This document shows, in pieces, positions 7,086 to 44,850 of a DNA stretch of 46,880 nt. The notes beneath the pieces were generated by a model. It did no database searches. It was not told the DNA's origin and saw only the letters and a program-made list of their open reading frames with translations. Numbering within the stretch: the first letter of the stretch is position 1; every line of letters begins with the position of its first letter. Made by a program: the position numbers and the translations under genes. The DNA comes from Acutalibacteraceae bacterium (GTDB lineage Bacteria > Bacillota > Clostridia > Oscillospirales > Acutalibacteraceae): positions 1-46,880 of the forward strand of contig JAZOOE010000011.1 of NCBI GenBank assembly GCA_045654865.1, written 5' to 3'.

Positions 7086-7100
7086 AAAATCACCTCTGGC

Positions 7101-7906: not shown

Positions 7907-7971
7907 TTTTTCAGCAAAAAAAATACCGTTCATTACAATAAATATTGTATTATTGTGATTAAGTCTCTATA
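7899..7971 (+). promoter_or_regulatory. Putative LytTR-dependent promoter of LRR protein 1
   Basis: There is a perfect 12-bp inverted repeat, GAACGGTATTTT (7899-7910) / AAAATACCGTTC (7920-7931). The proximal site TACCGTTCATTACA is followed by TATTG and then TATAAT (7966-7971). Confidence 0.6.
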
Positions 7972-8001
7972 ATGAAAGAAAAAAACAAGGAGATAAATGC
8001 T

Positions 8002-11583: not shown

Positions 11584-11652
11584 TACCGTTCGCCCGAGAA
11601 TCCGACCGTTCATTACAAGTGCTATTGTTTTTTGTTTTTTTGGGCTTTATAA
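11584..11652 (+). promoter_or_regulatory. Putative LytTR-dependent promoter of LRR protein 2
   Basis: The direct repeats TACCGTTCG (11584-11592) and GACCGTTCA (11604-11612) start 20 bp apart. They are followed by TTACA, TATTG (11623-11627) and TATAAT (11647-11652). Confidence 0.65.
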
Positions 11653-11729
11653 TCTGAACAACCCCGATGATGACGGGAAAGAATGAACGGTTCAGAGCCG
11701 TTCTCACAAAACCATATTTTTGAAAGGAA

Positions 11730-18580: not shown

Positions 18581-19933
18581 CTATTCGGAAATTGCATTTA
18601 ATCGTATTACGAGGGTGAAAACTCCGTCCTCAAATTTTGTGAGCATTTCACCGTCATACTTTTTTGTTGTGCTTTCTATGCTTTTGAGTCCGAAGCCGTG
18701 ATTTTCCCTGTCCCCCTTTGAGGTGGTTCTCATTCCCCCCGAAAATCCCGAGGGAACGCTCAGTGCGGGATTTGAAATGCTTATAACGCTGTAGCTTTCA
18801 TCTCCGTGCATTTTAAGCTTTATATAACGGCTGTCGGGATCGTCGATTTTTCTGTTTGCCTCTATGGCATTGTCAAGGGCGTTACTGAGTATTATGCACA
18901 TATCCACGGGCTTGATGCTGTTTTTTTTCATATTCATAACGTCATAGCTTGTGGTAATGCTGTCAGACTGCGCCTCATAAAGCTTTTCGTTGAGGATAGC
19001 ATCGACTGCGGAAATTCCCGTAATTCTTACGTACTGCGATTCATCGGTTATTCCGCTCATTTCGCGAAGATATTTTTTTATTTCCTCAAGGTCGCCGTTT
19101 TCCGCGAGGATATTCATAGTAAGGATATGATTTTTTATATCGTGGCGGAAATTTCTCGTGCGGTTATAGGCGTTTTCTAAATTTTTAATGGATATTTCCT
19201 GTAACGAAAGCTGAGCGGTGAGCAGATCGTTTTCCCGTTTGATGCTCGCCTGACGCTGATTGAACCAGAACAGCACGAAAACAACGCCGTTTATCAGTAT
19301 TATTCCTATGCAGGAAATATATATGTAAGCCTTTATCTGTTGATTCAGGTTATATGTCTCAATTATATATTGGAATACAGAGAACGTGATAAGGGTTACT
19401 GCGGGCACCAGCAGAAGGCTTATCCACATTCTGAAGGTATTGCTTCCCTTGGCGCTGCCCTTCATAAGCACGCTTATGAGCACCGCAAGAGGTATCATTA
19501 TTATGTTTGAAAGCGTCAGTCTTAAAAGTGCCGAAAAGGCTGAATCCTCATCGGGCGGTACGGAAAAGCTGTTGCATATAAGCTCGTAAAGAAAGCCCGA
19601 TATGATTACGCTGAAGGCAAGAAGCGCCGAAAAGAGTATTCCCGCCGTAAGCTTTTTTTTCAGCCTTCCCGTATACATAGTAAACAGGAAAATTATCAGC
19701 ACCGCACATTCTGCGACGTATCTGAAATTCCCGATTCCCGTGTATTCCTGTAAAAGTATGACTGCCGCCGCAAGGACGACAAAGGGAATATAATCGTGCT
19801 GCTTCATTACGGCACGCGGCTTGAAAAAGTTGTTTATAAGCAGGAAGGCAAGCATGATCTCAAACACCGAGGAGAATATTCTTGCGGTGTTGAGAATTAT
19901 ATCCTGATAATTGTCTGCAATAAATTCAAGCAT
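18581..19933 (-). CDS. AgrC-like membrane sensor histidine kinase (second copy)
   Basis: The N-terminus is polytopic. It has the H-box FRHDIKNHILTMNILAENGD, the N-box LSNALDNAIEA and the G-box NHGFGLKSIESTTKKYDGEM. Confidence 0.85.
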   Translation of the reverse strand: MLEFIADNYQDIILNTARIFSSVFEIMLAFLLINNFFKPRAVMKQHDYIPFVVLAAAVILLQEYTGIGNFRYVAECAVLIIFLFTMYTGRLKKKLTAGILFSALLAFSVIISGFLYELICNSFSVPPDEDSAFSALLRLTLSNIIMIPLAVLISVLMKGSAKGSNTFRMWISLLLVPAVTLITFSVFQYIIETYNLNQQIKAYIYISCIGIILINGVVFVLFWFNQRQASIKRENDLLTAQLSLQEISIKNLENAYNRTRNFRHDIKNHILTMNILAENGDLEEIKKYLREMSGITDESQYVRITGISAVDAILNEKLYEAQSDSITTSYDVMNMKKNSIKPVDMCIILSNALDNAIEANRKIDDPDSRYIKLKMHGDESYSVISISNPALSVPSGFSGGMRTTSKGDRENHGFGLKSIESTTKKYDGEMLTKFEDGVFTLVIRLNAISE

Positions 19934-19936
19934 AGC

Positions 19937-20647
19937 TTATCTCATAGCCCATAAAAAGGCCTCGTTTGTCTCCTTTGCCCGTCTTTTGCTCACGGGAAGA
20001 GTCTCACCCGTGATAAGGGATATTTCGTTTTGCTTAACTGCGCTGATTTTTTTTGCATTTACAAGAAATGACTGATGGCATCGCACGAAATCGTGCTTTT
20101 TCAGCTGCTGCTCAATATCGTCCAGCTTGCCGTAAAAGGAATATTCCTCCGTACCGGTTTTTACGTTGATTATTCTTTTGTCACTTTCAAAATATATTAT
20201 ATCTGAAAGGGGAATGCCTACCGTTTCGGAGGATCTCTGAAAGGTGAAGCGCTCCTCTCCGCTTTTTGTCAGCTCGTCAAGACATTCGTTGAATACCCTT
20301 GCGAAGCCGTGAAGCAGCTCGGGCTTTAATATATACCGGAACGCTTTAACCTCATAGCCGGAGAAAACGTATTCAGCCGAGGAGGTGACGAAGACTATCA
20401 TAACCTTTGAATCAAAGGATCGGATTATTTTGGCGGCTGTCATTCCGTCGCAATCCTTCATTGTAATGTCAAGAAAAATCAGATCAAAGGGGGTATGCCC
20501 CGAGCGGTAACTCTCCACAAGACGGCTGCCGTCGTCAAATACGGTAATGCTGCCGTCGAGCTCAGTTTTTGCAAGACAATCCATGGTGCTCTTCTGCAGA
20601 AAGTCGCATATATATTTTTCATCGTCACAAATGGCAATATTGAGCAT
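19937..20647 (-). CDS. LytTR-family response regulator (second copy)
   Basis: It has the receiver MLNIAICDDE...FLDITMKDCDG and the LytTR C-terminal domain (FESDKRIINV...FVRCHQSFLVNAKKI). Confidence 0.9.
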   Translation of the reverse strand: MLNIAICDDEKYICDFLQKSTMDCLAKTELDGSITVFDDGSRLVESYRSGHTPFDLIFLDITMKDCDGMTAAKIIRSFDSKVMIVFVTSSAEYVFSGYEVKAFRYILKPELLHGFARVFNECLDELTKSGEERFTFQRSSETVGIPLSDIIYFESDKRIINVKTGTEEYSFYGKLDDIEQQLKKHDFVRCHQSFLVNAKKISAVKQNEISLITGETLPVSKRRAKETNEAFLWAMR

Positions 20648-20671
20648 CTGTCTCTTCCTGTTCTGATAAAA

Positions 20672-21220
20672 TTATTTGTTTTTCTTTCTGAAAATAACAA
20701 GCTTTGATGCAACGTAATTGAAAATTACAACGAATACGGCAATTGCAAGCTTTGCTATAAGGTGATGAAGTCCTACTGTAATGAGAAGCATAAAAACAAG
20801 CTCCTCGAATATTACAAAGGAGAGAATTCTTGCTCCGAGAAAGGAGATAAGTTCTCTGATGACGGTTTTTATTTTCCATGAGCTGCTTTCAAAAACGAAA
20901 AGCTTGTTCGTGACGAATGCGAAAAGCACGGAAACAATCCAGGCTATTGCGTTGATGAGAAGCACCCACTTTATCTCAAAGGGAGTGTCTGAGATATTCA
21001 GCGTGAATAATATTCTTTCCTCATAGCTCTCACCCACCATCGCACCTACCGAAAGATAGGTTGCAACGTTTACTACCGTGGTGCAGACACCGAATACAAG
21101 GTATGAAATTATCTCGTACTGTAAAAGCTTTTCAACTCCGGGGATTTTAAGAAGCTTTTTGAATACGGGCACGGAGAATATTCTGTTGTAGATTTTTTCG
21201 TAAAATTCTTTAAGTTTCAT
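20672..21220 (-). CDS. GtrA-family membrane protein
   Basis: The protein is 182 aa with 4 TM segments. It carries the GtrA-like motifs FAFVTNKLFVFES and FNYVASKLVIFRK. Confidence 0.8.
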   Translation of the reverse strand: MKLKEFYEKIYNRIFSVPVFKKLLKIPGVEKLLQYEIISYLVFGVCTTVVNVATYLSVGAMVGESYEERILFTLNISDTPFEIKWVLLINAIAWIVSVLFAFVTNKLFVFESSSWKIKTVIRELISFLGARILSFVIFEELVFMLLITVGLHHLIAKLAIAVFVVIFNYVASKLVIFRKKNK

Positions 21221-31593: not shown

Positions 31594-31641
31594 AAAAAAT
31601 AAGACAGGGGACTCGGACAGATTGCTTTCTGTCCGAGCCCC
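31594..31641 (-). terminator. Intrinsic terminator of the dockerin protein gene 31703-33961
   Basis: The stem is ggggactcggacag (31607-31620) / ctgtccgagcccc (31629-31641). On the minus strand it is followed by cttatttttt. Confidence 0.85.
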
Positions 31642-31702: not shown

Positions 31703-33961
31703 TTATAATGATTCAAGTCCTACAGAGGCTCGCAGAATAAGTCTTGCATCTGAGGATGTGATTTCGCCGTCCTTATCAGCATCAGCTGCCTTGAATTCGG
31801 GTGTGCCGGGAAGATATTTTTCAAGTCCTACGGAGGCTCTCAGCGCAAAGCGTGCATCCGAAGAGGTTATAAGCTCGTCACCGTCTATATCACCCGATAC
31901 CACGGGCTTTTTGCCCGTAAGCTCGCCGCAAAGGTCGCATCTGCCGTCAAATTCGCTGTCGGTATGCTCATCGGCACCATGCTTTACAACACGGTTTCCG
32001 TCAAGCACATAGCCGACGGGAATGTAAAGGTATCTCGTTTCGTCCATTGTGTATTTGCCGGTCTGAGGAACCATAAAATACACCATATCGAAGCGGTATT
32101 CCTTTTCACCGTCCGAAAGCTGATCCTTCAGCGTGTTCTGTGTTGTTTCGGCTCCGATATACAAGCACTCTTCTTCGTTGTTGGGGTCAAACTTATATAA
32201 GGTCTTGCCCGTAATTTTTTGTTGAGTGGAAATCTCGGTTTCTCCCACATGTATATTTACGGGGGATATGATTCTTTGCATTGTTGCGTGAGCCCAGTTT
32301 CCGAAGCCCTGACCGAAATCGGTTTCGTAGCGGTCCTCGATTATATAAAGGTTCCAGTATTCGTTTGTATCGCCCTCAAAGCTTTTCTTTACATTGGTTT
32401 GCGGCTTGCTGATAGTGTGGTCTGATTCAATATCGTTTTTATCCTTCCATTGAGGCATCCAGGGGGAAACTATACGGAATTTGCCGGATTCGGTTAGTTT
32501 TACGTAGTAGGTTGCGCCTCTTATAAGTTCGTAATTGAATCCGCCGCTGAATCCGTCTGCAAAGCTGCCACCCTCGCCCTCTGCAGGAATAATTCTGCCG
32601 TTTGCATCATACACCGTATAATCCCCCTTGCGTATAAAGACGGAGGTTGAGGGGGCTGTGAAGGTGAACCATTGGGGATTTTCCTCGGAAGCCTCGATAT
32701 CCACGGTTTTGCCGATTTCTATTTCCGGAACGTCTGCGGGAATCGGCTCGGTTTCGGGCGCGTGCCTTTCGAAGGTGACGGAGAAGCACGGCTCGGTATA
32801 GAAGCCTTCACGGACTATTGTAACGTACAGACTTCCCTGATAGTCGTCGTCTTTCATGCTTGTGAGCTTTCCGGTGAGTCTTCCGTTTTCGTCAAGGGTA
32901 AGTCCGTCGGGAGCGGAGAAAAACAGTTTTCTGCTGTAGCCTTTGTCGGCAAACTCGATAAGCTGTATATCTATTTCTTCGTTTTCAGCCAAATAAATGG
33001 TTTCTGCATGGATTACCTGCTCGGGCAGAGTATCTATAACCTCGTTGCAATCAATAACGTTTGCCGTGAATATACCCTTGAAGGCTGCTACAGAGATTAT
33101 TCCTTCATTTTTGCCGATTCCATTGATGCGGATATACCAGTTGCTTCTGCCGCTGATAACTTCATACAGCTTGTCATACATTACGCATACAGTTCTGCCG
33201 TCCGTGTATTCGATTGTGCATTTTATATTTTCGTCTGATATAACAGAGCTTCGGGGACCGTCCATCATAATCTCAGAGGTGAAAAAGCTGTCCTCAAAAC
33301 AGTTATAGCCGAGATAAAGAGGATAAATAAACTCCGCGCTTATATTTTTTATTGTGCAGGGGGTGACGATTGCACTTACGTAGCAGCTGCAGCCGCTGTA
33401 GCGGATACGTATATAGTGCTCACCCTCTGTCCAGTTTTCGGAATATTGATCTGTTATATAGTAAACCTCATAATCGGGAATTACGGAGCCGTCAGATGCC
33501 TCAAAATCATATCTGTAATCTTCACGGCGCGCAACAAAATCTTTTACGGTGCCGTCGGAATAGGTTACCGTGAGAATATCGCCCTCTCTGGTGTCAACGG
33601 TAAAAATGCCGCTTGAGCTTGCGTCGGTTTTATATTCAAAGGAATAGGGTGTGACGGGTGTGTAGAAAATTTCTTCCACGTAAATACCGTCATTCTCAGG
33701 ATAAGTGGTGCCACCCTCATAGCCGCCCGTTGTGGTTTCTTCATAATATCCGGTTGTTCCCTCGTAATATCCGGTTGTTGTTTCCTCATAGTACCCTGTG
33801 GTTGTTTCTTCGTAATATCCTGTGGTTGTTTCCTCGTAATAGTCCGTCGGGGCTGCCCTTGATACAAGGAGAGGAAGCTCTGCAATAAAGCAGGAGAGAA
33901 GAATAACTGCTGCAAAAATAACTGAAAGAATTTTTTTTGCAGTGATACTTGTTTTAGTCAT
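31703..33961 (-). CDS. Secreted dockerin-containing protein of unknown function with an N-terminal YYEETTTG repeat linker
   Basis: It has a signal/anchor sequence (KKILSVIFAAVILLSCFIA) and four to five YYEETTTG units. The C-terminal type-I dockerin has the duplicated segments DIDGDELITSSDARFALRASVGL and DADKDGEITSSDARLILRASVGL. Confidence 0.85.
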   Translation of the reverse strand: MTKTSITAKKILSVIFAAVILLSCFIAELPLLVSRAAPTDYYEETTTGYYEETTTGYYEETTTGYYEGTTGYYEETTTGGYEGGTTYPENDGIYVEEIFYTPVTPYSFEYKTDASSSGIFTVDTREGDILTVTYSDGTVKDFVARREDYRYDFEASDGSVIPDYEVYYITDQYSENWTEGEHYIRIRYSGCSCYVSAIVTPCTIKNISAEFIYPLYLGYNCFEDSFFTSEIMMDGPRSSVISDENIKCTIEYTDGRTVCVMYDKLYEVISGRSNWYIRINGIGKNEGIISVAAFKGIFTANVIDCNEVIDTLPEQVIHAETIYLAENEEIDIQLIEFADKGYSRKLFFSAPDGLTLDENGRLTGKLTSMKDDDYQGSLYVTIVREGFYTEPCFSVTFERHAPETEPIPADVPEIEIGKTVDIEASEENPQWFTFTAPSTSVFIRKGDYTVYDANGRIIPAEGEGGSFADGFSGGFNYELIRGATYYVKLTESGKFRIVSPWMPQWKDKNDIESDHTISKPQTNVKKSFEGDTNEYWNLYIIEDRYETDFGQGFGNWAHATMQRIISPVNIHVGETEISTQQKITGKTLYKFDPNNEEECLYIGAETTQNTLKDQLSDGEKEYRFDMVYFMVPQTGKYTMDETRYLYIPVGYVLDGNRVVKHGADEHTDSEFDGRCDLCGELTGKKPVVSGDIDGDELITSSDARFALRASVGLEKYLPGTPEFKAADADKDGEITSSDARLILRASVGLESL
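33707..33841 (-). repeat. Tandem ~24-bp coding repeats (YYEETTTG units)
   Basis: The unit ggttgtttc(c/t)tc(g/a)taatatcc(t/g)gt is reiterated 5 times, once as a 21-bp unit. These encode residues ~41-85. Confidence 0.85.
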
Positions 33962-34011
33962 AATGATACCGCCTTTCGGTAAGATTTCACAGCTTCCGGC
34001 CGTTTATCTTT

Positions 34012-34080
34012 ATTTTAGTCTCCTGAAAAATTAAAGCAATAGGCTATGTAATGAACGGTCGATTTTTGGTATGAACGGTA
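34012..34080 (-). promoter_or_regulatory. Putative LytTR-dependent promoter of the dockerin protein gene
   Basis: On the minus strand the order is TACCGTTCA (34072-34080), then 20 bp later GACCGTTCA (34052-34060), followed by TTACA, TATTG and TAAAAT (34012-34017). The geometry is identical to that at 11584-11652. Confidence 0.65.
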
Positions 34081-34154
34081 TAAAAGCCGTATTTTTGACG
34101 GAACGGGAAAGGGACTTCATAAGGTGATTTTTGCGGGGTTGCATAAAAAGCGGC

Positions 34155-34200
34155 AACAAAAAACGGCATCGCACACCTGAATGGGCGAAGCCGCTTTTTT
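34155..34200 (-). terminator. Probable terminator after the DUF1292 gene
   Basis: The hairpin is cggcatcgc (34164-34172) / gcgaagccg (34185-34193). T-runs are present on both strands. Confidence 0.55.
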
Positions 34201-34235
34201 TGCTTTTCGTTTTTCTTAATAATGTTATCGGAAAA

Positions 34236-34547
34236 TCAATCAACGAAATTGAAATCGTCCTTATGGTTTTCCATAAAAACGGCATAGATCTTGTCAACAA
34301 GCTCCTGATCGTCAATACCGAGATAGGTATCGTATTCGGAATCAAGCTCCTCAACCACCTCAAGGATGTGAACCAGCTCGTCCTCTTCGTCCGTTACGGG
34401 AAGAAGAACAACGTAGTCCTTGCCCTCAAACTCAACGAAATCGAGAATTTCAAATTTTTCTACCTTTCCGTCCTCGTCAACAAACTCAAAGATGTTCGTT
34501 TCCTCGGGCTCGGGTGTGTTGCTTTTGTTTTTGTTGTCTTTGCTCAT
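34236..34547 (-). CDS. DUF1292-family small acidic protein
   Basis: The protein is 103 aa. ..FVDEDGKVEKFEILDFVEFEGKDYVVLLPV..DELVHILEVVE.. is the typical DUF1292 pattern. Confidence 0.8.
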   Translation of the reverse strand: MSKDNKNKSNTPEPEETNIFEFVDEDGKVEKFEILDFVEFEGKDYVVLLPVTDEEDELVHILEVVEELDSEYDTYLGIDDQELVDKIYAVFMENHKDDFNFVD

Positions 34548-34578
34548 AATAAAAATTCCTTTCAGATTATTTGTGAAT

Positions 34579-36096
34579 TTATAAAGTAATATAAAGATTT
34601 TCCAGCTTTACTGCGGCTCTGAGCACAAGTCTTGCATCCAAGGAGGTTATCTCTCCGTCTCTGTCGGCATCCGCGGCAAAGTGAGTTTTGCCCGAAAGGG
34701 TGATAAGACCGACGGCGGCTCTGAGGGTATGACGTGCATCGAGTGCGGTGATGTCACCGTCTCCGTCGGGATCTCCCTTGCTGAAGGCAGAGGACACGGT
34801 GATGGAGAATATCTCGGAAAATTCCTTATAAATTACTATTATGTTCTGCTTTGTATCAATGATCGTGGGATCGGGCTTGCTGATGGAGTAATCGTCAATA
34901 TATACGAAGGAGCCGTCCGAATAAACAAGCCGTACTCTTATTCCGCTGAGGTCGATTATCTCTCCCTTGAGAAAGCTTGTTTCCACAAGGTTGCCGTTTT
35001 TGTCCTTGAATTCCACAAGGATGCTTTCGGGCTCAGCTACGGAGTAGCGAAGCTCAAGCGTAACAAAAAGCTCTCCGAAATAAACGTCGACCTTATTGCC
35101 GGGGCCGACAACGAAATCGGCAGGATTGCAACTGACGGTACAATCCTTTACGCTTACCTCTTCCTTTTCGCCGTTATCATATTCTGCCTCAAGCACGAGA
35201 CCGTCAAGCTCGGGCAGACGTGCGTTATCGTATACGGTAAGGCTTTCGGGAGGAGTCTTTACGGTAAGACCTATAAGCCTTCGGGGAGTGACTGAAATGC
35301 TGACGTCACAGTAAACGTCGGAATATCTGTAGCTTATTCTGATGGTGTGCTCACCCTTTGAAAGCACGCTGCCGTGAGCCTCCCCGTGACATCCGCTTAC
35401 GGTAAAGTCGGGATTTTTTGCAATCTGAGCAAATGAGAAGAGAGTGCTCGGCGCACCGTTTTCATAGTGAAGCTCTGCAATGAGAGCGGATAAATCAAGA
35501 GTCTCGTGCTCAAGATAAGAGACCTTAGGTGCAATTTTTACGCTCAGCGCCGTTACGGGCTGTCTTACCACCGTTACCGTGAATTCCGCGCTAAAGGAAT
35601 TCACGCCGTCGGGAGAATAAGATACGATAACGTTTTTTTCTCCGGGAGAATTCATTTCGGGAGTGAATACCGAGTACCCCGTGATATACGCTTCCGTTTC
35701 GTTTTTGTCAACGCTTACCACGGTAAGACCGTCAAGCACAAGGCTTTCGGTGCCGTCCGTATAGGTAAGCTTGTGGGGAAGAGTCTTTATTCTGATTTCC
35801 TTTATATCTGTTTCCTTGCCGTCGGTGCTTACGGGGGACAGTGCGCTTAACTGTATCCATCCCCACACGCCGTCCTTTGCAACGAAGGCATATCCGAAGC
35901 CCGAACGGATGTCGGTTATTTCAAGATAAGTATTTTTTGTTACCTCGCAAAGCCTGTTGCCCGTGATGCTTGGAACGTGATAGACGGTGGCAACGTCCTT
36001 TGTCACTATATACGTGTCTGCCGTCTGAGCTGCTGCCGCAGTAAGCGCAGAGATCAGCAATACGCCCGCAAGGAGAAAGCTCAATAATTTTTTCAT
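34579..36096 (-). CDS. Secreted dockerin protein with an SH3b-like N-terminal domain and repeated Big_3-like Ig domains
   Basis: It has the signal peptide MKKLLSFLLAGVLLISALTAAAAQ. Four units of the P-x-K-x-x-Y-x-x-G-x-x-LDL-x-GL-x-V type follow. The dockerin segments are DPDGDGDITALDARHTLRAAVGL and DADRDGEITSLDARLVLRAAVKL. Confidence 0.8.
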   Translation of the reverse strand: MKKLLSFLLAGVLLISALTAAAAQTADTYIVTKDVATVYHVPSITGNRLCEVTKNTYLEITDIRSGFGYAFVAKDGVWGWIQLSALSPVSTDGKETDIKEIRIKTLPHKLTYTDGTESLVLDGLTVVSVDKNETEAYITGYSVFTPEMNSPGEKNVIVSYSPDGVNSFSAEFTVTVVRQPVTALSVKIAPKVSYLEHETLDLSALIAELHYENGAPSTLFSFAQIAKNPDFTVSGCHGEAHGSVLSKGEHTIRISYRYSDVYCDVSISVTPRRLIGLTVKTPPESLTVYDNARLPELDGLVLEAEYDNGEKEEVSVKDCTVSCNPADFVVGPGNKVDVYFGELFVTLELRYSVAEPESILVEFKDKNGNLVETSFLKGEIIDLSGIRVRLVYSDGSFVYIDDYSISKPDPTIIDTKQNIIVIYKEFSEIFSITVSSAFSKGDPDGDGDITALDARHTLRAAVGLITLSGKTHFAADADRDGEITSLDARLVLRAAVKLENLYITL

Positions 36097-36117
36097 AATA
36101 CCATTCCGTTATATTTT

Positions 36118-37362
36118 TTACGGGAGAAGCCCGTTTTCAAGGAGAATTTCATACATATCATCAAGACCTACGGAGATTCGCAGGAGCGTTCTTGCGCTCA
36201 TTGACGATACTGTTGATTTCCCGTCAAGAGCAGCTCGTCTGAGAAGCTCGGGATCTGCATAATCGAGTCCCACTACCATACGAAGCACCATTCTTGCATC
36301 GTTTGCGGTTACTTCGCCGTCGGAGTCCACGTCACCGAATTTCTTTTCTTTTATATATTCTTCTCTTTGCTTTCTTTTTTCAAGCTCGCTTTCCTCAAGG
36401 GATACCCACTTTGCATAAAGCACCTTGTCGCCGGTTTCGCCGGGCTTTATTGCGCTTACTTTTTCTCCCGAAAAGTCGCTTTCATAGTACCAGCCGTCAA
36501 AAAAGAAGCGGGCATCGGGAGAGGTAAGGGGATTTATCAGCTGCTCTGTTCCCACCGTATAGCTGACGGGATTGAGGCTGTTATTTGCACCTACGAAGGT
36601 AAAGTTCATATCGCTTCTTGTGGTAATGTGATAATTTATTTCATAGACCTTCGGTATCCAATGGGTTCTGAGAGTGATTTCCTTTGTGCCCTCGGGGATT
36701 ACGTTTATTCGCTTGTCGTTGTCAGCAGACCAGCCGTCAAAGGTATAGCCTGCTCTCGAGGGGAGGGGTAACGCCGTATTCTGCTGTGTTTTTTCCGGAA
36801 AAACGAGAGGGATGCCCTCGGGAAGAATAAGACCGTCCGAGGTGATAAAAATCCTCATACTCTCCGACGGAGCAAATATATAGACCTTTTTGTCGGAGTC
36901 TTCGTCAGAATCGGCGGACGCCAGAAGAATTCTTGCGTAAAGCATAATTCCGCCGTTGGGAGCCTTATCGTATTTCAGCAGCTTCAGTATTTCCTCTGCG
37001 GAAAGCTCCGCCTCGGAGGAGGAAAGCTTTTTTGCCGTAAAAAATTGAGTACCGTTTTCGGACAGCTGGAGATAAAGCTCCGTGGGAGACAAAAGATATG
37101 CCTCGGGAGAGTTTTTCATGGCCTCTACGGTTTTATATTGCTCGAGAGCAAGGGAGCAGACGAATTCGCGCATAGCCTCAGCATCCGCAAGGTGATGGGT
37201 GAAGCTTACTGTGCATTTATCGGATACGCAGTTTTGCGTGAAAGCCGCCTGCTGTATTTCGGGGGCAGGGGTTATCTTATCCTGAGACACCAGTGAGAAA
37301 GCTGATATATGCATTGTGAAGACAAATATAAGCGATAAAAAAAGCGGTAATATTTTTTTCAT
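36118..37362 (-). CDS. Secreted dockerin protein with Listeria-Bacteroides (Flg_new) repeats
   Basis: The RBS AAAGGGAGtgaagagATG selects the start at 37362 (MKKILPLFLSLIFVF..) over the track start at 37434. The repeats are GYTFDGWSAD... and FFFDGWYYESDFSG..LYAKW. The dockerin segment is DVDSDGEVTANDARMVLRMVVGL. Confidence 0.8.
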   Translation of the reverse strand: MKKILPLFLSLIFVFTMHISAFSLVSQDKITPAPEIQQAAFTQNCVSDKCTVSFTHHLADAEAMREFVCSLALEQYKTVEAMKNSPEAYLLSPTELYLQLSENGTQFFTAKKLSSSEAELSAEEILKLLKYDKAPNGGIMLYARILLASADSDEDSDKKVYIFAPSESMRIFITSDGLILPEGIPLVFPEKTQQNTALPLPSRAGYTFDGWSADNDKRINVIPEGTKEITLRTHWIPKVYEINYHITTRSDMNFTFVGANNSLNPVSYTVGTEQLINPLTSPDARFFFDGWYYESDFSGEKVSAIKPGETGDKVLYAKWVSLEESELEKRKQREEYIKEKKFGDVDSDGEVTANDARMVLRMVVGLDYADPELLRRAALDGKSTVSSMSARTLLRISVGLDDMYEILLENGLLP

Positions 37363-37710
37363 CTCTTCACTCCCTTTCCGTGTCCGTCTGCGTGATATAT
37401 CAAGTACCGATACTATTATATAAATATAAGGCACCGCAAGTCAAGAAGAATAAGTTGGCAAGGGGATGTAAAAAAGGAGAATACCGCATAAAACTATATA
37501 CAACAAGGGGTTCTGCAGATATTGAGCCTGTGGAACCACAAAATTATGTGAAAATTTCAGAAATCGGTTAAATTTTTTGTTTTATACTGCGAATAAACCT
37601 CGCCATCCGACGTACCTGCGTACGCCGTCTAGCAAGCAAAACCAAGGCTCTCTCCTTGATTCCCCCTCTCGGTTTGTCCGTTCTTCATCTTTTTTCTATC
37701 TCCTTAAAAT

Positions 37711-37743
37711 GAGCTGTAAAAAACTTTCGTTTTTTTACAGCTC
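37711..37743. other. Symmetric A/T-flanked hairpin in a 420-bp gene-free region
   Basis: The hairpin is gagctgtaaaaaa (37711-37723) / tttttttacagctc (37730-37743) with the loop ctttcg. It does not follow any annotated gene on either strand. Confidence 0.5.
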
Positions 37744-37853
37744 CCTTCTGTCGGCAGAATGACGATTTATGACTAATTTAAAAGTTGCTATGGACTTTTT
37801 TTCAGGTTTATGATAACATAGAAATAGTTTTTTGAACAGCAGAGGTGTGAGTC

Positions 37854-39338
37854 TTGGCTAAAATAGGTTTTGATAATGACAAATATCTGAGAATGCAATC
37901 GGAATGTATACAGGAGCGTATTGCTCAGTTCGGAGGAAAGCTTTATCTTGAATTCGGAGGAAAGCTTTTTGATGATTATCACGCTTCAAGAGTGCTTCCC
38001 GGCTTTCAGCCCGACAGCAAGATAAAAATGCTTTACGAGCTTCGTCAGCAGGCTGAAGTCGTTATTGTAATTTCCGCGGATGCAATTGAAAAGAATAAGC
38101 GCAGAGGAGATCTGGGAATCACTTACGATTCTGATTGTCTTCGTCTTATAGATGCCTTCAGAGAGATCGGAATCTTTGTGGGCAGCGTCTGCATCACTCA
38201 GTTTGCTCAGCAGAGTGCCGCTATCAGCTTTCAGAAAAGACTTGAAAATCTCGGAATGAAGGTATACAGACACTATCTCATTCCCGATTATCCCGCAAAC
38301 ATTCCCCTTATAGTAAGTGACGACGGCTTCGGTCGTAACGACTTTATCGAAACCGAGCGCTCTCTTGTCGTTGTTACGGCACCCGGCCCCGGCTCGGGAA
38401 AAATGGCTGTCTGTCTTTCTCAGCTTTATCACGAGCATAAAAGAGGACAAAAGGCAGGATATTCCAAGTTTGAGACCTTCCCTATATGGAATCTTCCCCT
38501 CAAGCATCCCGTGAACGTGGCTTATGAGGCCGCAACAGCCGATCTCAACGACGTAAATATGATAGATCCCTTCCATCTTGAGGCATACGGTGTCACAACG
38601 GTAAACTATAACCGTGACGTTGAGATATTCCCCGTGCTCAACGCCATTCTGACAAAGATTCTCGGAGAAAGCATATATAAATCCCCCACAGATATGGGTG
38701 TAAATATGGTAGGTAACTGCATTTTTGACGATGAAGCCGTATGTGCGGCATCAAAGCAGGAGGTCATCAGAAGATATTATGAGGCAGCCTGTCTTGCACG
38801 TCAGGGGCTTGGCGATCCCGCAGTTGTGCACAGAATAGAAATTCTTATGAATCAGCTGGGTATTACCACCGCTGACAGGCCCTCTGCAGGAGCGGCTCTT
38901 AAAAAGGCTGATGAGACCGCAGAGCCCGCCGCCGCCGTTGAAATGCCCGATGGTGAGATAATTACGGGAAAGACCTCGGCTCTTCTCGGCGCATCCTCCG
39001 CTATGCTTATAAACGTAATCAAGAGGCTTGCCGATATTCCCGACGAGGTGCTTCTTCTGTCCCCCTCGATAATCGAGCCTATAACCAAGCTTAAAACGGA
39101 ATCAATGGGAAGCCATAATCCCCGTCTGCACGTGGATGAGGTGCTTATTGCTCTTTCAATATGTGCCGCCACAAATCCTGTTGCAAAAAAGGCGCTTGAA
39201 CAGCTTCCCGCTCTCAAGGGCCTTGAGGGACATTCCTCGGTAATGCTTTCCTCCGTTGACGTTCAGACCTTCAAGAAGCTGGGTATCAATATGACCTGTG
39301 AGCCCAAGAGTCAGACGAAAAAGCTTTACTATAAATAA
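37854..39338 (+). CDS. DUF1846 (UPF0371) family protein
   Basis: It uses a TTG start with AGAGGTG 6 nt upstream. KIGFDNDKYLRMQSECIQERI...YHASRVLPGFQPDSK is the conserved UPF0371 N-terminus. The protein is 494 aa. Confidence 0.85.
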   Translation: MAKIGFDNDKYLRMQSECIQERIAQFGGKLYLEFGGKLFDDYHASRVLPGFQPDSKIKMLYELRQQAEVVIVISADAIEKNKRRGDLGITYDSDCLRLIDAFREIGIFVGSVCITQFAQQSAAISFQKRLENLGMKVYRHYLIPDYPANIPLIVSDDGFGRNDFIETERSLVVVTAPGPGSGKMAVCLSQLYHEHKRGQKAGYSKFETFPIWNLPLKHPVNVAYEAATADLNDVNMIDPFHLEAYGVTTVNYNRDVEIFPVLNAILTKILGESIYKSPTDMGVNMVGNCIFDDEAVCAASKQEVIRRYYEAACLARQGLGDPAVVHRIEILMNQLGITTADRPSAGAALKKADETAEPAAAVEMPDGEIITGKTSALLGASSAMLINVIKRLADIPDEVLLLSPSIIEPITKLKTESMGSHNPRLHVDEVLIALSICAATNPVAKKALEQLPALKGLEGHSSVMLSSVDVQTFKKLGINMTCEPKSQTKKLYYK

Positions 39339-39367
39339 ATCAGCTTGAAATAAAATATGAAACTAAG

Positions 39368-39399
39368 GGAGAGTGAGAGGTAGTCTCGCTCTCCTTTTT
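39368..39399 (+). terminator. Intrinsic terminator of the DUF1846 gene
   Basis: The stem is ggagagtgaga (39368-39378) / tctcgctctcc (39384-39394), followed by ttttt. Confidence 0.85.
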
Positions 39400-39566
39400 G
39401 CTTGTCTGAAGCCTAAGGAATCCGAAAAAATTGATAAGCCTTGATAAACGGGGTATTTTGTTTTCTTGTTTTTTTCAAAATCGGGGATATATTTTCGGCA
39501 TTTTGCTGAAAATGTCGGACAAAAATCAGCCGAAGAGCCAAAATCCGACGAACGAGGACAATAATG

Positions 39567-39595
39567 TTGACAATTAGTCACAAACAATTTATAAT
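39567..39595 (+). promoter_or_regulatory. Consensus sigma-A promoter of the four-gene operon 39645-43964
   Basis: TTGACA (39567-39572) is followed by a 17-nt spacer and TATAAT (39590-39595), about 50 nt upstream of the start codon. Confidence 0.75.
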
Positions 39596-39644
39596 TTATT
39601 CATAAATTGCATTTCAGGCAATTTTTGGGAAATGGAGAATAAAT

Positions 39645-41057
39645 ATGTCAGAATTTAAGGTTGCTTTTATTGCTGATCTTCATCATTATTCGGAAAAGCT
39701 CGGCAACAGCGGCAGAGCCTATGAGCTCAGAGAGGGAAGCGATCAGAAGTGTCTCAAGGAGACGGGAGCCATAATTGATAAGGCCTTTTTGCAGATCCTT
39801 GAGGACTCGGCGGACGCTGTGTGTGTGGCGGGCGATATAACCAATGACGGTGAAAGAGTCAGCCACGATGAGATTTTTGAAAGGTTTTCTTTGCTTGCAG
39901 AAAAGAAAAGCGTTTACGTTATCACCTCAACTCACGATTGGTGCTCGGATCACAATCCGAGACGCTTTGAGGGTGAAGAGGTTTTCGGTGACGTTGATAC
40001 TATGTCTCCCGAGGAGCTGAGGAAAAGATATTCCGTATTCGGAAAAGAGAACTGTCTTTCCTCCTATCGTACTGCTCTCGGGCTTGAATCCAGATGCTAT
40101 CAGCTTTGTCCCGGACTGAGGCTTCTTGCGGTGCACGACGATTGTGACGGCCCCGGCGGCAGCTCAGGCTATTGCGAGGAGCATCTTGCGTGGATGACAG
40201 AGCAGTTAAAGGATGCAAGAGAAAGCGGCTGTAAGTGTATTGCCATGGAGCATCATCTTCTGCTTCATCCCTTTTGCAGACTTATAAACTCGGGACAGTC
40301 CATAGGAAACAATTTTGAAACGGCTGCCCGGCTTGCCGATGCGGGGCTTCGCCTTATGCTTGTCGGTCATTCTCACATGCAGAGAACCACCGAATTTGTA
40401 TCGCCTCAGGGCAATAAGATAACACAGATAAATCTCGGTGCGCTTACGGGGTACCCCGCACCTATAACCTATATAAGCTTTGACGGAGAAAACGCGGCGG
40501 TAAGCGTGCGCTTTCTTGATGAATTTACTTATAACGGAAATAAATGCGGTTTTAATTATTTTCGTGAGCATACTCTCGGAGTGCTTTTTAATCTTCTTGA
40601 GGCGGGTGCTGCCGACAAGGAGGATTTTTCACAAAGGCTTCGTGCGCAGGGTATAAAAGTCCCCTCGTTCGACACGCTTTATCCCGTGATACGCTTTGTC
40701 TGTAAAAGGCTTCTGCGTGCCCGTTGCGGTATGGTAGGCGGATTTATTAATTTTCTCACCCTCGGAAGAGCTATCCCCCGTAAGGCGCTCAGAGAGATAA
40801 AGGATATGCCTCTTTTACAGCTTGTGGGTGACGTGTTTCTGGGAATATTTGACGGCTCTGCATATCTCAAGGGGGCGCGCGAGGCTGAAAAAAGAGTTGT
40901 CTGCTCGGTGGGAGCACTGGCTTCCCGCATAATAAGACGGCTTCCCTTGAAAAACAAGGACGGAATACTGAAGACAACGGATCAGATAGAGGCTCTCACA
41001 CGAGAGCTTATGTATCCTTCCTTGCCCGATAATATGAATACCGTAATTGCATTATGA
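39645..41057 (+). CDS. Metallophosphoesterase family protein
   Basis: It carries FIADLHHYS, VAGDITNDGE, MEHHLL and VGHSHMQ. The protein is 470 aa. Confidence 0.8.
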   Translation: MSEFKVAFIADLHHYSEKLGNSGRAYELREGSDQKCLKETGAIIDKAFLQILEDSADAVCVAGDITNDGERVSHDEIFERFSLLAEKKSVYVITSTHDWCSDHNPRRFEGEEVFGDVDTMSPEELRKRYSVFGKENCLSSYRTALGLESRCYQLCPGLRLLAVHDDCDGPGGSSGYCEEHLAWMTEQLKDARESGCKCIAMEHHLLLHPFCRLINSGQSIGNNFETAARLADAGLRLMLVGHSHMQRTTEFVSPQGNKITQINLGALTGYPAPITYISFDGENAAVSVRFLDEFTYNGNKCGFNYFREHTLGVLFNLLEAGAADKEDFSQRLRAQGIKVPSFDTLYPVIRFVCKRLLRARCGMVGGFINFLTLGRAIPRKALREIKDMPLLQLVGDVFLGIFDGSAYLKGAREAEKRVVCSVGALASRIIRRLPLKNKDGILKTTDQIEALTRELMYPSLPDNMNTVIAL

Positions 41058-42280
41058 AAAATGATGCGCTGAAAATAATAAATGCCGCAATAAAGGCGGC
41101 GGATCCCTATGAGAATACCCTAAGGCTGCTGAACAGTCTTGCGCTTCCACGGAGGGTGAGCGTGCTTGCTGCGGGAAAGGCGGCCGTGCCTATGGCACGG
41201 GCGGCGTGCGACGTGCTTTCTTCACGGATAGCAAAAGCTCTTCTCGTAACTAAATATGAGCACGCGGGGGATTTTTTCCATCCTGCCTTTGAAGTAATCG
41301 AGGCGGGACATCCCGTAAGCGACGACAACAGTATTCTTGCGGCTCAGAAGGGACTGAGACTTGCCCGTGAGCTTTCAGAGGAGGACGTGCTTGTCGTGCT
41401 TTTATCGGGCGGCGGCTCGGCATTGCTTGGGGAAAGCAGGATCTCTCCCGAGGAGCAAAGAGATATAACGAAAAAGCTTCTTGAAAGAGGTGCGGATATA
41501 AGGCAGATAAATGCCGTGAGAAAAAGGCTTTCTCTCGTTAAGGGCGGTGCGCTTGCGGCGGCGGCATATCCCGCAAAGGTCGTGACGATCGCTCTGAGTG
41601 ACGTGCTTTCCAATGATAAAGGCGTTATAGCCTCGGGACTCACCGTAAAGGACGAGGAATCTGATGCTTTTGTTGACGGGGTGCTGAGGGAATATCTTTA
41701 CGATATCCCCGAGCATATAAGAAAAATTATTTTTACAAAAGACGAAATTAAGATAAATGACGGCGGTTATTATTTTGCAGGTGATATAAATATCCTCTGC
41801 GATGCCGCAGAAAAAGAGGCGGCGGCTCTCGGCTACAGAGTGCATTCGGGCAGACGCGACCTTACGGGTGAGGCGGCTGATACGGCACGGCTTCTGACGG
41901 ATATTCCCGAAACTTCTTCGGGACGCTGTTGCTACGTGTTCGGTGGTGAGACCGTTGTAAAGGTCACGGGCACGGGCAAGGGCGGCAGGAATCAGGAGGC
42001 GGCGCTGTCGGCGTCTATAGAGCTTCGCGGTAAAAAAGGAATCCTTTTTGCAAGTGCGGGCTCTGACGGGACGGACGGCCCAACGGACGCGGCAGGAGCA
42101 ATTGCCGACGGTAATACGTATAATATAATGAAAAGCCGCGGAGTGTCTCCCGAAAAGGAGCTTGCCGACAATAACTCATATTACGCTATGGCTTCGGCGC
42201 AGTCCCTTATCCTTACGGGACCTACCGGAACCAACGTTAACGATCTGATTATAATTTTGACTGAAGATTATGAAAAATAA
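41054..42280 (+). CDS. Glycerate 2-kinase / hydroxypyruvate reductase-like (DUF4147 + MOFRL)
   Basis: It has an ATGA overlap with the upstream gene. It carries ..LLSGGGSAL.., GGETVVKVTGTGKGGRNQEAALS and GSDGTDGPTDAAGA. Confidence 0.85.
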   Translation: MKNDALKIINAAIKAADPYENTLRLLNSLALPRRVSVLAAGKAAVPMARAACDVLSSRIAKALLVTKYEHAGDFFHPAFEVIEAGHPVSDDNSILAAQKGLRLARELSEEDVLVVLLSGGGSALLGESRISPEEQRDITKKLLERGADIRQINAVRKRLSLVKGGALAAAAYPAKVVTIALSDVLSNDKGVIASGLTVKDEESDAFVDGVLREYLYDIPEHIRKIIFTKDEIKINDGGYYFAGDINILCDAAEKEAAALGYRVHSGRRDLTGEAADTARLLTDIPETSSGRCCYVFGGETVVKVTGTGKGGRNQEAALSASIELRGKKGILFASAGSDGTDGPTDAAGAIADGNTYNIMKSRGVSPEKELADNNSYYAMASAQSLILTGPTGTNVNDLIIILTEDYEK

Positions 42281-42938
42281 AAAGATTGAGCTTGTGGATT
42301 ACACAAGAGGAGAAGAAATACTTAATATTCTGACGCACCTTGCGGGACTTGTTATTCCGGTATTTATAATAATGAGAATTTTTCCCTTGTGCGCAGATGA
42401 GCCCTTTTATATGCTGTGTGCTGTTTTATATACGCTCGGCTCCTTTCTCACCTTTGCGGCGTCTGTTGTATATCACGCCATACCGCCCTCGGATATAAAG
42501 GGAATTTTCAGAATAGTTGACCATACCGCCATATTTTTTGCTGTTGCGGGCACTATTACAGGCTGTGTTCCCGCTGTTTTCAGAGAGGGAGAGACTGTGG
42601 GTGCCGTGCTTATGCTGGTGCTTGCATGGGGAAGCGTTATTGCGGGCAGTATACTTACCGTATTTTTCTTCGAGAAAACCAAAACCATCAGAATGTTTAT
42701 CTATATTTTTTCGGCGGCTCTTTCCGCTCTTGCGGGAGCCGGAACGTTTCTCCGTTTGGATCCCGGTGCATTTATATGCCTTCTGACGGGCGGCGCGGTG
42801 CTTCTTATAGGCTGTGTGCTTTATAAGGCGGGAAAAAAGAAGAGATACGTTCACAGTATTTTTCACTTGTTTATATTGCTGGGACTCGGTATTTATTGTA
42901 ACGGCATATACTATTTCGTTTATCTTCCTATCATTTGA
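42270..42938 (+). CDS. Hemolysin III / PAQR family membrane protein
   Basis: The protein is 222 aa with 7 TM segments. It carries EEILNILTHLAG, DHTAIFF and HSIFHLF. Confidence 0.85.
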   Translation: MKNKKIELVDYTRGEEILNILTHLAGLVIPVFIIMRIFPLCADEPFYMLCAVLYTLGSFLTFAASVVYHAIPPSDIKGIFRIVDHTAIFFAVAGTITGCVPAVFREGETVGAVLMLVLAWGSVIAGSILTVFFFEKTKTIRMFIYIFSAALSALAGAGTFLRLDPGAFICLLTGGAVLLIGCVLYKAGKKKRYVHSIFHLFILLGLGIYCNGIYYFVYLPII

Positions 42939-42965
42939 CATCTTAAGGAATTGAGGTTTTGTAAA

Positions 42966-43964
42966 ATGGAAAAAAGAACAGTTTGTCTTACCGGTGCAAC
43001 AGGTCACGTAGGCTTTGCAGTGCTCAAGGAGCTGCAGAATTATGCGGATACTGACGTGAGGATCATTCTCAGAAAGGATCCCGGCTATTTTGACGGTCTT
43101 TCCTGCGAAAAGCTCAAGGGTGATATTACCGATTATGCTTCTCTCGTTGAAGCCTTCAGGGGCTGTGACATTGTATATCACGTTGCAGGCTGCGTTGAAA
43201 TAAAGCCCGGTAATGAGGACTTTGTTTATAAGGTAAACGTTACGGGAACGGAAAACGTTATAAATGCCTGCCGTGAAACGGGAGTTAAAAGGCTTGTATA
43301 TATGTCAAGCGTTGATACCTATATTCCTCTTCCCGAGGGACAGGTAATGACAGAGGTTTATGAATATGATCCCGATAAGCTGGAGGGAACCTATGCAAAG
43401 ACAAAGGCAGAGGCAACCGCAAAGGTGCTTGCCGCCAACGAGCCCGGTGTGCTTGAAACGGTGGTATGCCAGCCAAGCGCTTGTATGGGACCTTATGATT
43501 TCAAGGTATCAAGCATCGGCAGTATGGTGAGAATGTTCTCATCGGGTAATTTCCCCATTACAATGACCTTCGGTGCATATAACTTCGTTGACGTCCGCGA
43601 CGTTGCAATCGGTACCATTCTTGCAGGTGACAAGGGCGGTGCAGGTGAGGTTTATCTTCTTTGCAATCAGAGCTGCACCGTTGACGAGTTTATAAGACTT
43701 CTTGCCGAGGTTTGCGGAAACAAGCCTCCCAAGATCAAGCTCGGAAAGGGCATAATCGACCTTGCCGCCCCCGTAATGGAGGTATTCTACAAGGTATCGG
43801 GACAGTCTCCCATATTCACGCGCTACGCCGTAAGAAAGCTGTGCTCAAACTGCAACTTCTCCTTTGAGAAGGCTCAGAGGGAGCTTGGCTATAATCCGAG
43901 ACCTCTCAAGGAAAGCCTTGAGGACACTATGAAGTGGATAAAGGAATCTGAAGGCAAGGCATAA
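42966..43964 (+). CDS. NAD-dependent epimerase/dehydratase (extended SDR, dihydroflavonol-reductase-like)
   Basis: It has the Rossmann motif CLTGATGHVG and the catalytic YAKTK. The ATG at 42966 is preferred over the upstream TTG at 42951. Confidence 0.85.
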   Translation: MEKRTVCLTGATGHVGFAVLKELQNYADTDVRIILRKDPGYFDGLSCEKLKGDITDYASLVEAFRGCDIVYHVAGCVEIKPGNEDFVYKVNVTGTENVINACRETGVKRLVYMSSVDTYIPLPEGQVMTEVYEYDPDKLEGTYAKTKAEATAKVLAANEPGVLETVVCQPSACMGPYDFKVSSIGSMVRMFSSGNFPITMTFGAYNFVDVRDVAIGTILAGDKGGAGEVYLLCNQSCTVDEFIRLLAEVCGNKPPKIKLGKGIIDLAAPVMEVFYKVSGQSPIFTRYAVRKLCSNCNFSFEKAQRELGYNPRPLKESLEDTMKWIKESEGKA

Positions 43965-43993
43965 GAAAGACGTTAAATATCTGTATATAAAGC

Positions 43994-44040
43994 TACGGGA
44001 TGTGCTTCCTTGCGAGGCACCTCCCGTAATTTATTCTTTA
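43994..44040 (+). terminator. Probable terminator of the operon
   Basis: The stem is tacgggatgtgc (43994-44005) / gcacctcccgta (44017-44028) with one mismatch. It is followed by the T-rich atttattcttta. Confidence 0.5.
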
Positions 44041-44187
44041 TCCGATATTTGTTTTGCCTTTTTACGAAAAGTCGGGGAATTTAACTCAGACCTTAATTAC
44101 ATTGTTCTTCGCACTCGGGGGGACAACCCCGTTCTCCTTTGTCTTTTCGTGACAAGCACTGCATTTGTGTCCGCAAATGCAATTTAA

Positions 44188-44343
44188 GTTATGAGTTATA
44201 AGGTTCGCTTTCGCTCACCGTTATGATTTTGCTATCGCAAAAGTTATGATATGATTGCCTTTTTTTGCTTTCAACTTGGCGAAGTCAATTATAACGATGC
44301 GTAGCATCTCATAACTCATAACTTGCCGAAAGGCAATCATAAC
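44188..44343. repeat. Heptamer/hairpin array: 4 x GTTATGA-like units followed by 4 x TCATAAC-like units, separated by short hairpins
   Basis: The forward units lie at 44188, 44195, 44220 and 44243. The reverse units lie at 44289, 44309, 44316 and 44337. The spacers are themselves hairpins (ttttgc-tatc-gcaaaa; gatgc-gta-gcatc; ttgcc-gaaa-ggcaa). Confidence 0.7.
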
Positions 44344-44402
44344 TGCGCACCTGCTATATCGCAGGTGCGCCAAGGGGGCTTTCCTTTTTTGAAGCTATGA
44401 GA

Positions 44403-44433
44403 AAACGGCTGCCGATGTGACGGGCAGCCGTTT
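44403..44433 (-). terminator. Intrinsic terminator of the VOC/esterase operon
   Basis: The stem is aaacggctgcc (44403-44413) / ggcagccgttt (44423-44433). On the minus strand it is followed by tctcat after the ttt of the stem. Confidence 0.7.
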
Positions 44434-44448
44434 AATTATATAAGTTGC

Positions 44449-44850
44449 TTATGCCTTGAAGAATTCGAGCTGCTCACCGTCGGGGCCCTTGACAAAGCCG
44501 CAGGTGATAGTCATCTTCTCGGGTGAGGAATCAAGAGGAACGGTTTTGGGCTCTATAAAGGGAGTAAAGCCCGCCTCAAGAGCAACGGCATAAGCCTTTT
44601 CAACGTCATCGGTTGACAATGCAAGATGCTGCCATTTGCCCTCCTCGGCATATTGGTCGCCGCCGTTGGCAAACAGCTCAATGATGCCGCCGTCGCCGAT
44701 GTCGAGCATAACTATAAGACTTGCGCCCTCGCCCCAGCGTACCTTTTCGGTCATACCGAGTGCCTTATACATTGAAAGGCTCTTTTCGATGTCCTTACAT
44801 CTGAGTGCTATATGATGGAAGCCGAGGCCTCCTGATATTTTTGTTGCCAT
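44449..44850 (-). CDS. VOC (glyoxalase/bleomycin-resistance/dioxygenase) family protein
   Basis: The protein is 133 aa. It carries GFHHIALRCKDIEKS and ..WQHLALSTDDVEKAY.., the paired beta-alpha-beta-beta-beta modules. Confidence 0.8.
   Translation of the reverse strand: MATKISGGLGFHHIALRCKDIEKSLSMYKALGMTEKVRWGEGASLIVMLDIGDGGIIELFANGGDQYAEEGKWQHLALSTDDVEKAYAVALEAGFTPFIEPKTVPLDSSPEKMTITCGFVKGPDGEQLEFFKA

Follow-up and report, generated by a model that had tools for sequence, protein, structure and literature searches.

Does the 69-bp stretch at 34012-34080, which precedes a gene for a dockerin protein on the minus strand, place that gene under the same regulator as LRR genes elsewhere in the window, and if so, which regulator would read it? 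The window, meaning the whole stretch of DNA that was analysed (46,880 nucleotides), is contig C11 of an assembly of 2.50 Mb in 265 contigs that is 74% complete, and this assembly was the genome searched. The evidence presented below indicates that the stretch is probably an activator-dependent promoter of the sigma-70 type with a paired-repeat operator for the LytTR response regulator encoded at 7101-7802; the doubt that attaches to the operator reading concerns mainly which paralogue binds.

Architecture of the predicted promoter upstream of the dockerin gene

When the letters of the minus strand from 34080 to 34012 were re-read, they agreed at every element with the module layout given by an earlier, sequence-only reading of the same DNA. 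The order on this strand is TACCGTTCA-N11-GACCGTTCA-TTACA-N5-TATTG-...-TAAAAT, with the -10 hexamer ending 50 nt 5' of the ATG (33961). The distal half-site of the paired direct repeat, TACCGTTCA, occupies 34072-34080, and the proximal half-site, GACCGTTCA (34052-34060), starts 20 bp after it, which leaves a spacer of 11 nt and puts the proximal centre at about -51 from the predicted transcription start. The proximal half-site is followed by a TTACA extension (34047-34051), which is conserved in most of the 22 sites aligned in this study, then by five bases that read TAGCC at the dockerin site, and by TATTG (34037-34041). A weak -35-like hexamer, TTGCTT (34034-34039), of which TTG alone is conserved across sites, begins 12 nt past the end of the proximal repeat, and the -10 hexamer TAAAAT (34012-34017), conserved as TAnAnT in the anchored alignment, lies 16 nt past TTGCTT. 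The predicted leader of about 44 nt (33962-34005, minus strand) contains a Shine-Dalgarno-like AAGGCGG, and folding of the leader showed no significant structure (z-score -1.2). A CCCGTTC at 34107-34101 was considered as a third half-site and dismissed, as it lies 28 bp from the distal repeat and is out of phase.

The spacing had been described as identical to that of the copy at 11584. This holds for the half-site period, which is 20 bp in both, but not for the interval between the proximal repeat and the -10 hexamer, which is 34 nt at the dockerin gene compared to 35 nt at 11584 and 7925; the two modules are therefore near-identical in geometry rather than identical. A standard sigma-70 scan did not call the dockerin-gene promoter because its -35 element is poor, which is expected for a promoter that depends on an activator.

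Direct repeats of about 9 bp roughly two helical turns apart, a weak -35 element at a near-fixed distance and a boxed LytTR gene nearby are all features of LytTR response-regulator operators (AgrA/ComE/PlnC type), and all are found here. In the mechanism proposed on this basis, the kinase encoded at 5796-7085 would phosphorylate the regulator encoded at 7101-7802, a dimer of which would occupy the two ACCGTTCA half-sites, 20 bp apart and centred near -71 and -51. The bound dimer would then recruit or reposition RNA polymerase at a promoter where TTG alone serves as the -35 element, and the monocistronic, terminator-flanked gene 31703-33961 would be switched on. With the regulator's own operon in the regulon, the circuit would also be subject to positive autoregulation. 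It is the position of the box and the weak -35 element, and nothing else, that argue for activation over repression.

The candidate regulator

Two HPK10/LytTR pairs are present in the window, at 5796-7802 and 18581-20647. The first comprises the predicted binder, a response regulator with Response_reg and LytTR domains (7101-7802, minus strand), and its predicted cognate, an HPK10-type histidine kinase (5796-7085, minus strand) with a polytopic N-terminus of 6-7 hydrophobic segments, an FRHDYRNH H-box and a HATPase_c_5 domain. The regulator has a box in its own promoter, TACCGTTCG-N11-GACCACTCG (7906-7879, minus strand), which stands back to back with the promoter of the LRR gene 7972-11376. 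Relatives have such a box as well, with orthologues of the regulator boxed in their own promoters in genomes G013 (74% identity), G055 (73%) and G045 (68%); G055 mirrors the window in that an LRR_5 protein of 914 aa is encoded divergently and another LRR gene is boxed too. When GTDB genomes were scanned, seven more loci (L084-L090) with orthologues at 58-64% identity came to light, in Acutalibacteraceae and Clostridia MAGs that, to judge from their isolate names, derive from the guts of ruminants, including cattle and buffalo. The box lies beside the regulator in all seven of these loci and in the regulator's own promoter in six, and in four of the seven a second, divergent box faces a gene whose product is large and secreted (and in L086 rich in LRRs). 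Overall, the box accompanies orthologues of 7101-7802 (58-74% identity) in at least ten other Acutalibacteraceae genomes, where it is mostly paired, in the opposite orientation, with the box of a gene for a BspA-type LRR protein, and all loci with an orthologue of at least 58% identity are boxed, the own-promoter box scoring at least 20 bits except in L082 and L088.

The second pair shows no such association. The window scan found no ACCGTTC pair near its regulator (19937-20647), and in the fetched loci the relatives of this pair were never adjacent to a box. Because 7101-7802 carries the box in its own promoter and in those of its orthologues and the second pair never adjoins one, the binder is likely to be regulator 7101-7802 with kinase 5796-7085 rather than 19937-20647. 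The second pair lies directly behind a GtrA-family gene and a gene for an 830-aa MFS_2 fusion protein (window 18581-21220), and no repeat box was recognised there.

It is nevertheless conceivable that the box is real and that another LytTR regulator reads it, namely that of the 18581-20647 pair, one encoded on contig C9 or one that the assembly lacks, in which case the only promoter linking 7101-7802 to the motif would be its own. Related, module-like boxes occur in three genomes (G003, G036 and G018) in which no regulator was found at E <=1e-45 to 7101-7802, and the promoters of paralogues at 40-45% identity themselves contain similar half-sites (ACCGTTC/GCCATTC at L006-L010, and likewise at L069). 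Since there are boxes without a close orthologue and paralogues with related half-sites, more than one member of the clade may read the motif. The boxes in the three genomes may reflect either incomplete assemblies or several LytTR paralogues reading the motif, and a further LytTR regulator of the 7101-7802 clade could lie outside the 74%-complete assembly. However, 7101-7802 is the sole member of its clade in this assembly, the genome's other LytTR regulators being only 32% and 23% identical to it, and the distribution of boxes described above, present at every locus with an orthologue of at least 58% identity and absent beside the second pair and its relatives, also speaks against a different reader. 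Such a reader is accordingly considered unlikely, and regulator 7101-7802 is taken as the candidate in what follows.

The dockerin gene and its transcription unit

The gene at 31703-33961 (minus strand) encodes a secreted protein of 752 aa, with a signal peptide, YYEETTTG repeats, an all-beta core and a C-terminal type I dockerin. The dockerin matched Dockerin_1 at residues 690-742 with 23.6 bits, barely over the cut-off of 22.9, and contains duplicated D-x-D-x-D-G...SDAR-x-x-LR segments, corresponding to two calcium-binding repeats. The core (residues about 95-680, ~590 aa) is rare, and a Pfam search of the whole protein returned nothing besides the dockerin, with no carbohydrate-active catalytic or binding module. 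The AlphaFold model (pLDDT 77) shows beta-sandwich domains strung one after another, and a PDB fold search with this model returned only generic multi-Ig, cadherin and S-layer folds (TM ~0.1-0.2) and no enzyme fold. Because there is no carbohydrate-active module and the folds are generic, the product is better described as a dockerin-bearing surface protein than as an enzyme subunit; it is a non-enzymatic protein that a cohesin presumably holds at the cell surface. Two PF00963 cohesins in the genome score above the cut-off of 24.1 (26.0 and 25.2 bits) and one scores below it; cohesin modules lie at C35:5968-6336 and C8:23593-23949. A homology search of the dockerin protein against the LRR proteins of the window found no relationship. 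In a separate observation, residues 38-90, after the signal peptide, consist of five to six tandem YYEETTTG repeats; this stretch is predicted to be disordered (pLDDT ~25) and may be O-glycosylated or form a Tyr-rich stalk.

Three genes lie 5' of the dockerin gene on the same strand, encoding a protein with Flg_new and a degenerate dockerin (36118-37362), a protein with Big_3 and a dockerin (34579-36096), and a DUF1292 protein (34236-34547) that is also present in the syntenic locus described below. A terminator hairpin with a U-tract (34150-34205, minus strand; -25.2 kcal/mol, z -4.3) follows the DUF1292 gene, and because of it the box and promoter should be shielded from read-through. At the other end, an intrinsic terminator with a 14-bp stem (31608-31641, minus strand; -33 kcal/mol, z -9.1) closes the unit. 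By these predictions, the dockerin gene is an insulated monocistronic cassette, consisting of a terminator, the box and promoter, the gene and a second terminator.

The genome contains approximately 21 dockerin-domain matches, and the genus has many, at 55-69% identity. Among the ~21 matches only 31703-33961 has the box, in keeping with the suggestion that the regulation is gene-specific, and ACCGTTC is absent from 34080 to 44537, so that the other dockerin genes at 34579-37362 indeed go without the motif. A search of the 20 nearest genomes for a full-length orthologue of the dockerin protein returned dockerin-domain matches only. The DNA read sets that matched were bovine-gut metagenomes, with a word share of at most 0.14. 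None of the RNA runs contained the dockerin gene, and the metagenome contigs were too short or too divergent to span the box.

Conservation of the box at homologous genes and across the genus

Homologues of the dockerin protein were sought in larger collections. A word-indexed search of 5.8 billion proteins recovered one relative of the core, P0002 (43% identity, 990 aa), and an exhaustive phmmer search of 1.8 billion representatives recovered 13 relatives over the whole core or its C-terminal half, at 33-47% identity. The locus of P0002 is syntenic, with genes for DUF1846, Flg_new, Big_3/dockerin, DUF1292, P0002, radical-SAM, 2-oxoacid_dh and HTH proteins. The sequence 5' of P0002 reads TACCGCTCA-N12-GACCGATCG-TTACA-TAACC-GATTG...TATAAT or, with the proximal repeat and its extension taken together, TACCGCTCA-N12-GACCGATCGTTACA-N5-GATTG...TATAAT; outside these elements, the spacer and the window no longer align. 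Genome G013, whose regulator is 74% identical, encodes a 620-aa homologue of the 31703-33961 protein with a C-terminal dockerin, and a perfect TACCGTTCA-N12-TACCGTTCATTACA extends from 115 nt to ~80 nt 5' of its start codon. The box is thus kept before this dockerin-protein family in three species although identity between the proteins is down to 41-43%. At the dockerin site in the window the period is 20 bp, compared to 21 bp at the orthologous sites, so the spacing of the half-sites is not rigid, and among orthologous and sister sites in general the period is 20 or 21 bp. The G013 locus (L077, G013:C74) also has an extra lone half-site, TTACCGTTTATTACA, ~95 nt upstream of the box before the 620-aa homologue.

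When 58 genomes of the genus were searched for the pattern and the loci then fetched were inspected, 22 sites were obtained, which were aligned on the proximal repeat. Conserved in this alignment are the two ACCGTTC cores, a RYCCGAAAAAnC-like (CCCGAAAAA-like) spacer, TTACA, TTG and TAnAnT, and the rest varies; the consensus that the alignment gave is GACCGTTCATTACA. Seven variable bases separate TTACA from TTG, and TAnAnT lies 17 nt past the -35 hexamer. Because only the functional elements are conserved in the 22 sites, the alignment points to constraint, and a reading of the module as the product of recent duplication was rejected.

The same data bear on the view that recombination or duplication has spread the module as a promoter cassette, shared among these genes for historical reasons and with no specific regulator here, or, in a variant of this view, that the repeats are the site of a repressor or roadblock rather than of an activator. 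The dockerin gene is indeed self-contained from terminator to terminator, and relatives have some boxes that no protein gene follows. The copies, however, share functional elements only and differ in the 11-nt spacer and in the bases between TTACA, TTG and the -10 hexamer, and the box survives at orthologous promoters despite the low identity of the proteins. As for the variant, a position upstream of a weak -35 element is typical of activation. A shared history without a specific regulator is consequently regarded as improbable, and an operator read by a LytTR regulator is preferred.

Some boxes in the relatives are of interest in their own right. At L065 (G016:C91, ~9617-9760, plus strand), a full box and TATAAT precede a terminator hairpin by ~90 nt, the interval contains no ORF, and the unit could encode a small RNA that the same regulator controls. 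At L061 and L068, copies of the box lie 5' of tRNA genes with no protein gene behind. No conserved small ORFs were found behind the orphan boxes in relatives.

Singularity of the module in the genome

Matches to ACCGTTC-N13-ACCGTTC with at most two mismatches number four in the window compared to 0.16 expected, and perfect matches in the 2.50-Mb assembly occur at 11585 and 34079 only. The 13-mer ACCGTTCATTACA has four copies genome-wide, three in the window and one on contig C223, all four of which are intergenic and gene-facing. To avoid circularity, a PWM was trained on 12 sites that all came from other species of the genus. A PWM scan had been put forward in the sequence-only reading as one way to check its proposal; with the cross-species PWM, the sites at 11584, 34080 and 7906 scored 45.9, 42.2 and 29.4 bits, respectively, and the next-best match in the genome scored 14.2 bits, a gap to background of 15 bits for the weakest window site and 28 bits for the dockerin-gene site. 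In a second scan, with separate half-site matrices, the period left free at 19-22 bp and the reversed genome as control, the top three matches scored 38.4, 36.9 and 34.8 bits and the next 18.9 bits, with the control reaching at most 23.5 bits. By both the PWM and the pattern scans, the stretch at 34012-34080 is a genuine full copy of the module, the third one, as had been proposed. While ACCGTTC alone is a short word with 14 copies in the window, several of them intragenic, the notion that the box at the dockerin gene is a chance match without biological meaning is, on sequence evidence, effectively refuted, given that its 20 specified bases match exactly just twice in 2.5 Mb, that an independently trained PWM sets it far above background and that the box is kept before the homologous gene in two other species.

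The predicted regulon

Besides the dockerin gene and the regulator's own operon, the window contains two further module-bearing promoters. The sister module (11584-11653, plus strand) precedes the BspA-LRR gene 11730-14069, and a proximal half-site, TACCGTTCATTACA, with a promoter but a degenerate distal half (7924-7971, plus strand) precedes the LRR gene 7972-11376; both LRR proteins are of the LRR_5/BspA type. Outside the window, contig C223 carries a full box, AACCGTTCA-N12-AACCGTTCATTACA (~1548-1450, minus strand; 21-bp period, 34.8 bits), before an ORF for a lipoprotein-like protein of 239 aa with a Thr/Glu/Pro-rich linker and a Cys-rich C-terminal domain, for which a Pfam search gave no match. 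The predicted regulon thus comprises the regulator-kinase operon, two BspA-type LRR proteins, one dockerin protein and the lipoprotein-like protein of C223. In the leader of the second LRR gene (window 11684-11701), there is also an inverted half-site, TGAACGGT, the reverse complement of ACCGTTCA, followed by GCCGTTC, which may serve as an additional operator 3' of the promoter.

The proposed link between the dockerin gene, the LRR genes and the LytTR system is therefore supported by the shared box and strengthened by the comparative sites. In relatives, the box precedes genes for LRR_5+dockerin proteins of 1302 aa (G003) and 957 aa (G045) and for a 431-aa dockerin protein (G045), and in G013 it precedes genes for LRR_5 proteins with an amphipathic C-terminal tail. 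Of the 14 members of the dockerin-protein family (query included), five contain LRR_5 and five contain a dockerin. The divide that had been drawn between non-cellulosomal LRR proteins and a cellulosomal component does not stand, as the box in relatives would drive LRR_5+dockerin fusions and the core itself is fused to LRR_5 in those five family members. Because these fusions in relatives are boxed, the predicted regulon is better understood as a set of non-enzymatic surface proteins with an interchangeable anchor, either a dockerin or a C-terminal tail.

Boxed proteins without a dockerin were seen to end in a similar amphipathic tail (ILWKIIGFFAKLFK, FFRKIAEFFRNLF, LLLFFRKLFERIKSIF). Such tails are encoded at 11299-11376 and 13953-14069 of the window and at L066, L067 and L069, some with a CxHICH...CECGAAHY motif, and it is possible that the tail is an alternative anchoring or sorting signal in place of the dockerin.

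The signal and the wider meaning

The system had been called AgrCA-like. The pairing of an HPK10 kinase with a LytTR regulator is as described, but the label does not extend to agr quorum sensing, as neither an AgrB match nor an adjacent peptide gene was found. PF04647 (AgrB) had no match at E up to 0.01 in the genome, which is 74% complete, and 14 control genomes likewise had no match above the family cut-off. The two-component operon is bicistronic, with a terminator-like hairpin, read by eye, after the stop of 5796-7085. No peptide, exporter or bacteriocin gene was visible beside it, and around 5578-7971 there was no plausible small ORF with a ribosome-binding site, although very short peptides could escape such a search. 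Without a match to either component, a case for agr-like quorum sensing is not made; the switch would work like those of the Agr/ComE/Pln type, and no quorum-sensing label is applied to it.

A broader interpretation can be offered only tentatively, and is itself rather doubtful. It is that a peptide-less HPK10/LytTR switch, conserved in ruminant-gut Acutalibacteraceae, senses an external cue (substrate, host surface or neighbouring cells) and remodels a non-enzymatic coat of BspA-LRR and beta-sandwich proteins with interchangeable anchors. If true, this would be the first regulator shown to choose non-catalytic passengers for a cohesin scaffold. Ruminococcus-like gut bacteria have dozens to hundreds of dockerin proteins without known function, and the present findings suggest that some of these are signal-dependent surface or adhesion factors rather than degradative machinery. 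To this subject the analysis adds a readable operator, a compact predicted regulon and a named candidate regulator, and the link between box, LRR and dockerin recurs across species.

Comparison with known systems

In the ComE, BlpR and PlnC/PlnD regulons of streptococci and Lactobacillus plantarum, several operons are preceded by direct repeats of 9 bp separated by 12 bp. These regulons resemble the present system in having one HPK10-LytTR pair, scattered two-repeat boxes by the -35 element and autoregulation; they differ in sensing a locus-encoded peptide and in running competence or bacteriocin production, compared to the non-enzymatic surface proteins predicted here. VirR of Clostridium perfringens, a LytTR regulator, acts on a handful of scattered promoters that drive genes for secreted proteins and carry two phased direct repeats each, and the peptide-making genes of the VirS/VirR system lie outside the regulator operon, as any such genes would here. 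The box is different, however, and VirR targets toxins rather than adhesin-like and dockerin proteins, so the kinship is at the level of the domain family.

In Staphylococcus aureus, an AgrA dimer binds paired direct repeats just upstream of the agr promoters P2 and P3, both of which have suboptimal core elements (PMC4227749). The AgrA boxes are similar to those described here in that the regulator's own operon is a target and the boxes are divergent and intergenic (here at 7803-7971). The present case differs in its half-site, ACCGTTCA, in its period of 20-21 bp and in its proximal centre, which lies at about -51 (compared to about -60 for AgrA); in addition, no agrB or agrD was found, and the targets are surface LRR and dockerin proteins rather than the regulatory RNA or toxins controlled by agr.

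With respect to cargo, the closest comparison is Ruminococcus flavefaciens FD-1, whose dockerin proteins include 118 of unknown function and contain 28 LRR modules between them (PMC2930009). These belong to the same classes as the targets in the present organism, an Acutalibacteraceae MAG, and in its relatives; the FD-1 study catalogues such proteins and names no regulator or operator for them (PMC2930009). A full-text literature search returned just three papers in which LytTR and the cellulosome occur together, in none of them in the title or abstract. What is familiar in the present system is therefore the mechanism; what is new is the half-site ACCGTTCA, the lineage (uncultured ruminant-gut Acutalibacteraceae) and the cargo, BspA-LRR and dockerin proteins of unknown function.
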